Shown piece after piece: positions 57,267 to 58,004 of a stretch of DNA of 64,000 nt. How positions within the stretch are numbered: position 1 is the first letter of the stretch; the number at the start of each line of letters is the position of its first letter. A program made the position numbers and the translations under genes. The notes beneath the pieces are model-generated. The model had not been told where the DNA came from. It was given only the letters and a program-made list of their open reading frames with translations, and did not search any database. This DNA comes from Escherichia coli (GTDB lineage Bacteria > Pseudomonadota > Gammaproteobacteria > Enterobacterales > Enterobacteriaceae), in assembly GCF_046105845.1 (NCBI RefSeq), contig NZ_CP151004.1, one strand, 5' to 3'.

Positions 57267-57577
57267 TCGTGTTTATGACCTGTTAAAACTTCGCGAAGTG
57301 ATAGGGCAGTATAAAGGGTACAGTGTGAAATTCCAGACTCTTACCTGATTGATGATTTTCTATTCTCCCGTGATATTTATCATCCTGCATTGGGGGAAAT
57401 AGATGTACAAGCGCCATTTTGCTGTACAAATAACCTACAAAAAGCCCAACGAAATTAATTGCAAATAAACGAAGATTGCTGGAAATTATGCTGATGTTAA
57501 TTATTTGTGAAATAGTTAACAAGCGTTATAGTTTTTCTGTGGTAGCACAGAATAATGAAAAGTGTGTAAAGAAGGGT

Positions 57578-57670
57578 AAAAAAAACCGGATGCGAGGCAT
57601 CCGGTTGAAATAGGGGTAAACAGACATTCAGAAATGAATGACGGTAATAAATAAAGTTAATGATGATAGC
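57578..57670 (-). ncRNA. micF: MicF antisense small RNA
   Basis: Minus strand reads GCTATCATCATTAACTTTATTTATTACCGTCATTCATTTCTGAATGTCTGTTTACCCCTATTTCAACCGGATGCCTCGCATCCGGTTTTTTTT, matching the micF sequence I recall, with a 3' hairpin and U-run; divergent from ompC. Confidence 0.85.
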
Positions 57671-57825
57671 GGGAGTTATTCTAGTTGCGAGTGAAGGTTT
57701 TGTTTTGACATTCAGTGCTGTCAAATACTTAAGAATAAGTTATTGATTTTAACCTTGAATTATTATTGCTTGATGTTAGGTGCTTATTTCGCCATTCCGC
57801 AATAATCTTAAAAAGTTCCCTTAAA

Positions 57826-57896
57826 TTTACATTTTGAAACATCTATAACGATAAATGAAACATCTTAAAAGTTTTAGTATCATATTCGTGTTGGAT
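57826..57896 (+). promoter_or_regulatory. OmpR-binding region (C1-C3) and ompC promoter
   Basis: TTTACATTTTGAAACATCTA and two further related direct repeats, immediately upstream of a -35/-10 pair (TTGGAT...GAGAAT) about 80 nt before the ompC ATG. Confidence 0.6.
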
Positions 57897-58004
57897 TATT
57901 CTGCATTTTTGGGGAGAATGGACTTGCCGACTGATTAATGAGGGTTAATCAGTATGCAGTGGCATAAAAAAGCAAATAAAGGCATATAACAGAGGGTTAA
58001 TAAC

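Follow-up and report, generated by a model that had tools for sequence, protein, structure and literature searches.

The divergent micF–ompC unit of an Escherichia coli genome: a conserved regulatory segment beside a porin gene with divergent surface loops

Introduction

The main points of what follows are already published: the divergent arrangement of micF and ompC with shared OmpR sites, the conservation of micF, and OmpC loops that are hypervariable and mosaic. The start sites of the two genes bound a linkage region of 253 bp (PMC1489923). Both micF and this linkage region are phylogenetically conserved, and the 13-nt 5′ end of the RNA, GCUAUCAUCAUUA, is invariant in every micF (PMC1489923). 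For the porin, highly variable regions in L1, L2, L4, L5 and L7 have been described together with mosaic recombination (bioRxiv 10.1101/2021.09.21.461324), and more than 220 OmpC variants have been catalogued that derive from modular L4, L5 and L7, with loops linked to CdiA and phage recognition (PMC5056734); it is L4 and L5 that experiments tie to such recognition (bioRxiv 10.1101/2021.09.21.461324; PMC5056734).

The stretch considered here, termed the window, comprises 64,000 nt of contig NZ_CP151004.1 (assembly GCF_046105845.1) of E. coli. Its closest described counterpart is the K-12 locus rcsD–micF–ompC–apbE, with which it shares gene order, orientation and the 738-bp intergenic length, as well as 93 of the 94 nt of micF and the whole of the OmpR sites C1 and C3 and of the ompC 5′ UTR from 57925 on. 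K-12 differs from it at one base of the micF terminator stem (C in the window, U in K-12), at the upstream bases 57823, 57824 and 57848, and in the porin, which is of 375 aa in the window and 367 aa in K-12: L1 differs, and the window form has an L4 shorter by 4 aa, an L5 longer by 8 aa and an L7 longer by 4 aa. Strain WEC has the identical OmpC protein (WP_072841508.1), though the coding sequences are 2 nt different and the flanking genes 1-4.5% different. The A42H/b1 loop type (Beck et al. 2016) has the same L4 and L7, but in L5 the window has K in place of its V and R in place of its H.

Further afield, the micF–ompC/OmpK36 units of Klebsiella, Citrobacter, Enterobacter and Kosakonia are also divergent; of 79 Enterobacteriaceae species compared, nearly all have the two genes 324-344 bp apart. 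Other units of the family share with the window the micF body, the -10 element, a marbox-like block, the AAAGTTCCC box, C1, C2b, C3 and the region of the ribosome-binding site (RBS), and differ in the spacer between these blocks, in lacking (for most genera) a 9-nt insertion at 57971-57979, and in loops L2, L5 and L7, where identity is 26-41%. The interpretation favored here, with high confidence, is that the window holds a canonical enterobacterial micF–ompC unit that is intact and operates as its K-12 counterpart does, and in which the regulatory elements and the barrel are under purifying selection while the loops are recombined old cassettes.

Organization of the locus

The rcsD–ompC intergenic region, taken from the rcsD start codon to the ompC ATG, is exactly 57267-58004, and the order rcsB–rcsD–micF–ompC–apbE–ada–alkB is the same in annotated K-12 and in 16 further RefSeq records. 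The features discussed below are collected in Table 1. As had been claimed in the original prediction, the divergent unit is intact, the relevant observations being a full-length match to the MicF family, a terminator and an uninterrupted ompC of 375 codons. Two intergenic open reading frames on the minus strand with TTG starts (57283-57522 and 57497-57724), one of which overlaps micF, were considered and dismissed as mechanical; neither is annotated in the RefSeq records examined. The PGAP annotation of RefSeq records lists no feature under micF. Directly downstream of rcsB is a match on the plus strand (53841-53917, 73.8 bits) to naRNA4 (Rfam RF02564), an element of the REP type.

Table 1. 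Features of the rcsD–micF–ompC segment in window coordinates (loop boundaries are approximate; variable and gapped columns and piN are from the 17-strain alignment)
Feature	Coordinates	Strand	Remarks
rcsD	54594-57266	-	890 aa
micF small RNA gene	57578-57671	-	Rfam RF00033
micF intrinsic terminator hairpin	57584-57606	-	10 bp, 6 GC pairs, 3-nt loop; terminator scan and minimum-free-energy fold
Probable micF -10 hexamer TAGAAT	57679-57684	-	inferred from position relative to micF 5′ end
Probable mar/sox/rob box of micF promoter, ACAGCACTGAATGTCAAAAC	57702-57721	-	consensus match
Conserved box AAAAAGTTCCC	57810-57820		precedes C1 by 4 nt
Hypervariable 3-4 nt spacer	57821-57824		between conserved box and C1
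OmpR site C1, TTTACATTTTGAAACATCTA	57826-57845	+	identical to published C1 oligonucleotide (PMC2586830)
OmpR site C2	57846-57865	+	19/20 match to K-12, G->A at 57848
OmpR site C3	57866-57885	+	identical to K-12
ompC core promoter	57886-57923	+	predicted; transcription start near 57924
ompC 5′ UTR and ribosome-binding site	57924-58004	+	conservation
ompC coding sequence	58005-59132	+	375 aa; ORF list; signal peptide = residues 1-21
Loop L1 codons	58137-58163	+	4/9 codons variable; piN 0.106
Loop L2 codons	58254-58277	+	6/9 alignment columns variable, one indel column; piN 0.180
Loop L4 codons	58521-58583	+	of 30 columns 12 variable, 9 gapped; piN 0.100, piS 0.39
Loop L5 codons	58659-58727	+	of 23 columns 15 variable, 8 gapped; piN 0.22
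Loop L7 codons	58935-58967	+	of 11 columns 5 variable, 4 gapped; piN/piS 1.2

With regard to the origin of the DNA, a comparison of the 24 kb at 40001-64000 with 5,426 complete E. coli genomes gives a best identity of no more than 98.6%, so the source lineage has no close relative among them. Derivation from a cryptic Escherichia clade was entertained and rejected, since the 8-kb locus is 96.6-98.2% identical to E. coli strains as against 88-93% to representatives of the cryptic clades and E. albertii. The unit is not universal in the species: 52 of the 5,426 complete genomes give no micF match, about 58 are without most of the unit, and in strain ST18 an ISVsa5/IS4-family insertion splits ompC.

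Diversity along the unit

Variation within E. coli was assessed in an alignment of 17 strains, the window together with 16 others picked along a similarity ranking. The multi-strain, per-site comparison that had been proposed as a check reveals a distribution that is far from uniform: segregating sites differ in density among ompC, micF and the two spacers that flank micF (chi-square p=1.5e-12). The even divergence that would have spoken against the original prediction is therefore not seen. The strains were drawn from a ranking over an ompC-containing query, so the absolute values of pi are not population estimates and serve for comparison along the locus: 0.010 for rcsD, 0.017 for the rcsD–micF spacer, 0.004 for micF with its one segregating site, 0.014 for the micF–ompC spacer, 0.064 for ompC (184 segregating sites and 66 gapped columns), 0.026 for apbE and 0.041 for ada. 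Over 54267-62087, synonymous diversity steps up across ompC, from a piS of 0.036 in rcsD on the left to 0.09-0.13 in apbE, ada and alkB on the right.

For comparison between genera, a pattern scan of species-representative genomes yielded 120 loci, 79 of them, from about 30 genera, with flanks long enough to show the gene on the far side of the control region. In these 79 Enterobacteriaceae species that gene encodes an ompC-type porin and diverges from micF at the distance given above, the two outliers being artefacts of calls at an upstream ATG. In Citrobacter koseri NCTC10786 the ompC-type reading frame beside micF ends early (351 aa, ...KINLLG), which may reflect a frameshift or a pseudogene. 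The search pattern was the first 28 nt of micF, whose conservation between genera is by construction and is not counted. Median identity to the window is then 88% for micF outside the pattern (57578-57642), 85% for C1-C3 and 80% for 57886-58004, as against 54% for the DNA just downstream of micF and 58% for the spacer 57672-57825. Column by column, the footprints are those of the micF TAGAAT hexamer, the marbox-like block, the AAAAAGTTCCC box, C1, C2b, C3 and the RBS region. On the other side of micF, blocks at 57423-57470, 57513-57530 and 57543-57577 of the rcsD–micF spacer are also kept across genera and are presumably rcsD promoter or other regulatory elements. One of them is overlapped by a promoter-like match on the plus strand (57505-57532; a consensus match only) from which transcription would run antisense into micF.

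MicF and its promoter

An Rfam scan of the whole window gives micF 116.8 bits in RF00033 (gathering score 79; E=9.5e-18) over the full model, 1-94 of 94, without truncation. The transcript start is taken as G57670, one base inside the beginning of the Rfam model, and the first 13 nt, at 57670-57658 on the minus strand, are the GCUAUCAUCAUUA reported as invariant among micF genes. The terminator hairpin, within about 85 nt of this 5′ motif, is followed by a U-run ending at 57578, and the fold of the RNA has a z-score of -5.4 relative to shuffled controls. The gene has its own promoter, directed away from ompC. Its TAGAAT block is 90-100% conserved across the 79 species, and the block at 57702-57721, mostly more than 90% conserved between genera, is presumably a mar/sox/rob box, to judge from its match to the marbox consensus.

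The earlier statement that micF is essentially invariant holds: one of 94 nt differs from K-12. This is the C at RNA position +82 (57589) for which K-12 has U. The base belongs to the terminator stem, on its 3′ side, and the change switches a G-C pair to G·U; it is also the sole segregating site of micF in the 17 strains. In strain FY10 there is an extra T after 57577, giving a terminator U-run of 9 instead of 8; the 738-bp intergenic region has no other indel in the 17 strains. Species-wide, micF is present in 5,374 of the 5,426 complete genomes. Of these, 3,231 have exactly the window sequence, nearly all others being at about 98.9%, i.e. about one base away. There are, in essence, two alleles one base apart in some 5,400 genomes. 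For a control 94-mer from the rcsD–micF spacer, 65 bp from micF, identity in the rows sampled goes from 100% down to 95.7%, and 29 genomes are at 90-95%. A 94-mer of the micF promoter is identical in 3,435 genomes.

That purifying selection acts on micF and the OmpR sites, as was proposed, is supported by these species-wide figures and by two further comparisons. Within the 17 strains one of the 94 micF sites segregates as compared with 38 of 644 in the flanking spacer, a modest difference (Fisher one-sided p=0.03), and across the 79 species the contrast is that of 88% for micF and 85% for C1-C3 with 54-58% given above. The 5′ region being identical to that of K-12, the RNA from the source genome would, as in the literature, pair through its invariant 5′ end with the ompF mRNA leader (ompF itself is outside the 64-kb window) and so repress OmpF.

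The OmpR sites and the ompC leader

With the micF start placed as above, the published 253-bp linkage puts the ompC transcription start at about 57924, and the three tandem 20-bp OmpR sites that together span 57826-57885 are then at about -98 to -39 of ompC. A GAGAAT hexamer is present at 57913-57918, within the predicted core promoter. The boundaries of C2 and C3 used here are the established ones (Harlocker 1995; Head 1998); no paper that defines the two sites came up in a full-text search with their sequences. By analogy with the literature, phosphorylated OmpR would bind C1-C3 and activate ompC in an osmolarity-dependent manner. In the shared control region of 253 bp the OmpR sites adjoin the ompC promoter, and the opposite side is taken up by the micF promoter, its probable mar/sox/rob box included; ompC is transcribed rightward and the 93-nt MicF leftward.

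The original prediction that the OmpR sites are conserved survives for the species, and largely for the family, but less so for the window itself. C3 has zero segregating sites in the 17 strains, and the mean majority-base frequency across genera is 0.87 for C1 and 0.90 for C3. Outside 57848 the 5,189 complete E. coli genomes that match the C1-C3 60-mer have essentially a single haplotype. At 57848, position 3 of C2, the window has A where all 17 strains that were read directly have G, including H113, the strain with the best 94-mer match. The window form of the 60-mer occurs in none of these 5,189, nearly all of which differ from it at exactly one base. The position varies freely across genera (T34, G22, A16, C8) and is within the C2a half-site, the least conserved part of the C1-C3 block between genera (C2b is 90-100% conserved). 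Since it is both variable between genera and inside a poorly conserved half-site, the change is probably neutral; possibly it is a base-calling error.

Immediately upstream, a near-invariant element and an unconstrained one are adjacent. The AAAAAGTTCCC box hardly varies across the Enterobacteriaceae; no relevant paper came up in a full-text search with the K-12 sequence of the AAAGTTCCC box and its surroundings. Within the short spacer between the box and C1, 57822-57824 occur in seven trinucleotide states among 18 E. coli strains, 57823 being the only four-allele site outside the ompC coding sequence in a 7.9-kb alignment, and the spacer is unconstrained across genera too. Its state differs between the window and strain L002 of the alignment, the ompC genes of which are near-identical, and among the aligned strains no association of spacer state with ompC allele type is visible.

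Downstream of the OmpR sites, the only segregating site of the ompC 5′ UTR in the 17 strains is 57924, the predicted start itself. The flattest stretch of the unit is not micF but 57927-58046, which comprises the 5′ UTR and the first 14 ompC codons, the start of the signal peptide, and in which there is no segregating site in the 17 strains. A 94-mer from the leader (57911-58004) is identical in 4,676 of 5,370 genomes. The 9 nt agcaaataa at 57971-57979 in this leader align to gaps in most other genera and look like an Escherichia-specific leader insertion.

OmpC and its surface loops

The ompC reading frame is intact, with a signal peptide and a C-terminus, ...LVYQF, that has the aromatic end. 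Residues 22-375 match solved structures (9wcb, E=1.6e-221; 2xe1, 5.7e-210; 2j1n, 8.6e-210), and near-identity to solved OmpC predicts a 16-stranded beta-barrel with eight external loops; an AlphaFold2 model from a shallow alignment of 15 OmpC sequences had a pLDDT of 29 and was unusable. The allele group is relatively uncommon: identity over a 1.87-kb query reaches 99% or more in only 10 of 5,430 records. It carries the long form of L5 and the long form of L7 (VING). The L5 string KVDNVTR was not found in the text of the supplement to the 2016 L5 catalogue, as far as that text was available, the nearest listed allele there being b1.

The statement that ompC differs in its loop-encoding segments proved accurate. 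Relative to K-12 there are 44 substitutions and 48 indel nucleotides, and the codons of L1, L4, L5 and L7, about 29% of the gene, have 31 of the former and all 48 of the latter; the constriction loop L3 accounts for 3 of the remaining substitutions and other parts of the gene for 10. The loop boundaries used are approximate, deriving from Fig S1 of PMC5056734, machine-read, and the general topology of porins. Of 58 amino-acid columns that vary in the 17 strains, 44 belong to surface loops, as do all 22 columns with gaps. Loops with variable residues are L1, L2, L4, L5, L7 and L8, the gapped codon columns being confined to L2, L4, L5 and L7; L6 is invariant and L8 nearly so. Between genera, porin identity is 87% for non-loop residues, 91% for L3, 41% for L2, 34% for L5 and 26% for L7.

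Region-averaged Nei–Gojobori estimates give piN 0.103 and piS 0.238 (piN/piS 0.43) for the surface loops, and piN 0.007 and piS 0.105 (piN/piS 0.066) for barrel, turns and signal peptide, so that the amino-acid diversity of the loops is about 15-fold that of the barrel. The ratio is 0.017 for the constriction loop L3 and 0.06-0.12 for rcsD, apbE, ada and alkB, and exceeds one only in L7 (on 11 codons). The synonymous diversity of the loops is itself raised: at 0.24-0.43 (0.28-0.43 for L1, L2, L4 and L5) it is 2-4 times that of the barrel. In addition, the L5 types TAA and SPL are each found with short and with long L7, so all four combinations exist (strains L001, i.e. K-12, L008, L009 and L005). 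The raised loop piS together with the presence of cassettes in all four combinations points to old allelic segments shuffled by recombination rather than to recurrent point-mutational sweeps, in agreement with the published accounts of these loops (bioRxiv 10.1101/2021.09.21.461324; PMC5056734).

The further proposal of diversifying selection on the porin surface fares less well than the description on which it was based. It is compatible with the data, but mosaic loop cassettes fit recombination of old alleles as well as they fit diversifying selection, and the Nei–Gojobori test, with a region-averaged loop piN/piS below one, does not establish positive or diversifying selection.

Alternative explanations

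As for what maintains the loop variation, conceivably constraint is simply relaxed, with tolerated substitutions and in-frame indels drifting in the loops without diversifying or balancing selection. The mean loop ratio of less than one is as would be expected from this, and the lack of variation in L6 and in most of L8 suggests that structure, not exposure, sets variability. A piS in the loops 2-4 times that of the barrel, however, is not predicted by relaxed constraint but is by long-lived alleles or imported segments; the cassettes are discrete and recur in many combinations instead of forming a continuum (see also PMC5056734), and published experiments link L4 and L5 to CdiA and phage recognition. 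Relaxed constraint as the whole explanation is considered unlikely, though a large share of the variation deriving from it is compatible with the data, and diversifying or balancing selection is most likely what maintains the loop variation. In the favored reading L1, L2, L4, L5 and L7 are old, highly diverged in-frame cassettes shuffled between strains by recombination and, to judge from the literature, most likely maintained by pressure from phage, contact-dependent inhibition (CDI) toxins and antibody.

On the regulatory side, the flatness of micF within E. coli could stem from local history, such as an earlier sweep or scant diversity toward rcsD, instead of from purifying selection. The entire left flank is indeed low in diversity, as is apparent from the step in piS described above, and within the species micF is set apart from the adjacent spacer only at p=0.03. 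Local history does not, however, account for the retention of micF outside the search pattern relative to the DNA just downstream in 79 species of about 30 genera, for the preservation of base pairing by the lone E. coli polymorphism, or for the existence of about two alleles in 5,374 genomes when the control 94-mer goes from 100% to 95.7% or lower, and it is accorded very little probability. An equally slight chance is given to the idea that the control region diversifies along with the porin, 57848 and 57822-57824 tuning OmpR-dependent expression of ompC and micF in a lineage-specific manner. The absence of the window 60-mer from the genomes searched, the uniform G of the strains read directly, the seven spacer states with a four-allele site next to C1, and a spacer state that departs from that of L002 despite near-identical ompC are what it has in its favor. 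Against it, 57848 is free between genera and in the poorly conserved C2a, the spacer is unconstrained across genera and has no visible association with ompC allele, and sequencing error or a neutral singleton could account for a single base. That the recurrently mutating spacer between the AAAAAGTTCCC box and C1, plus the 57848 change, is a dial for fine-tuning porin expression that diversifies alongside the surface is therefore a notion to which hardly any credence is attached. The preferred reading remains one of purifying selection on MicF, its promoter elements, C1, C2b, C3, the ompC 5′ UTR, the barrel strands and L3, which would contrast with the recombining loop cassettes.

Significance

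The contrast in conservation along the unit is a textbook case of function-partitioned evolution and matters little beyond annotation. Small loose ends are the 3-nt hypervariable spacer, the conserved box upstream of C1 and the base of C2 that was not found in the other E. coli genomes compared. For the organism itself, the source genome appears from its sequence to have a complete, apparently functional micF–ompC module for osmoregulation and stress, and the surface type of its OmpC, with L5 and L7 both long, is relevant to recognition by phage, CDI toxins and antibody.
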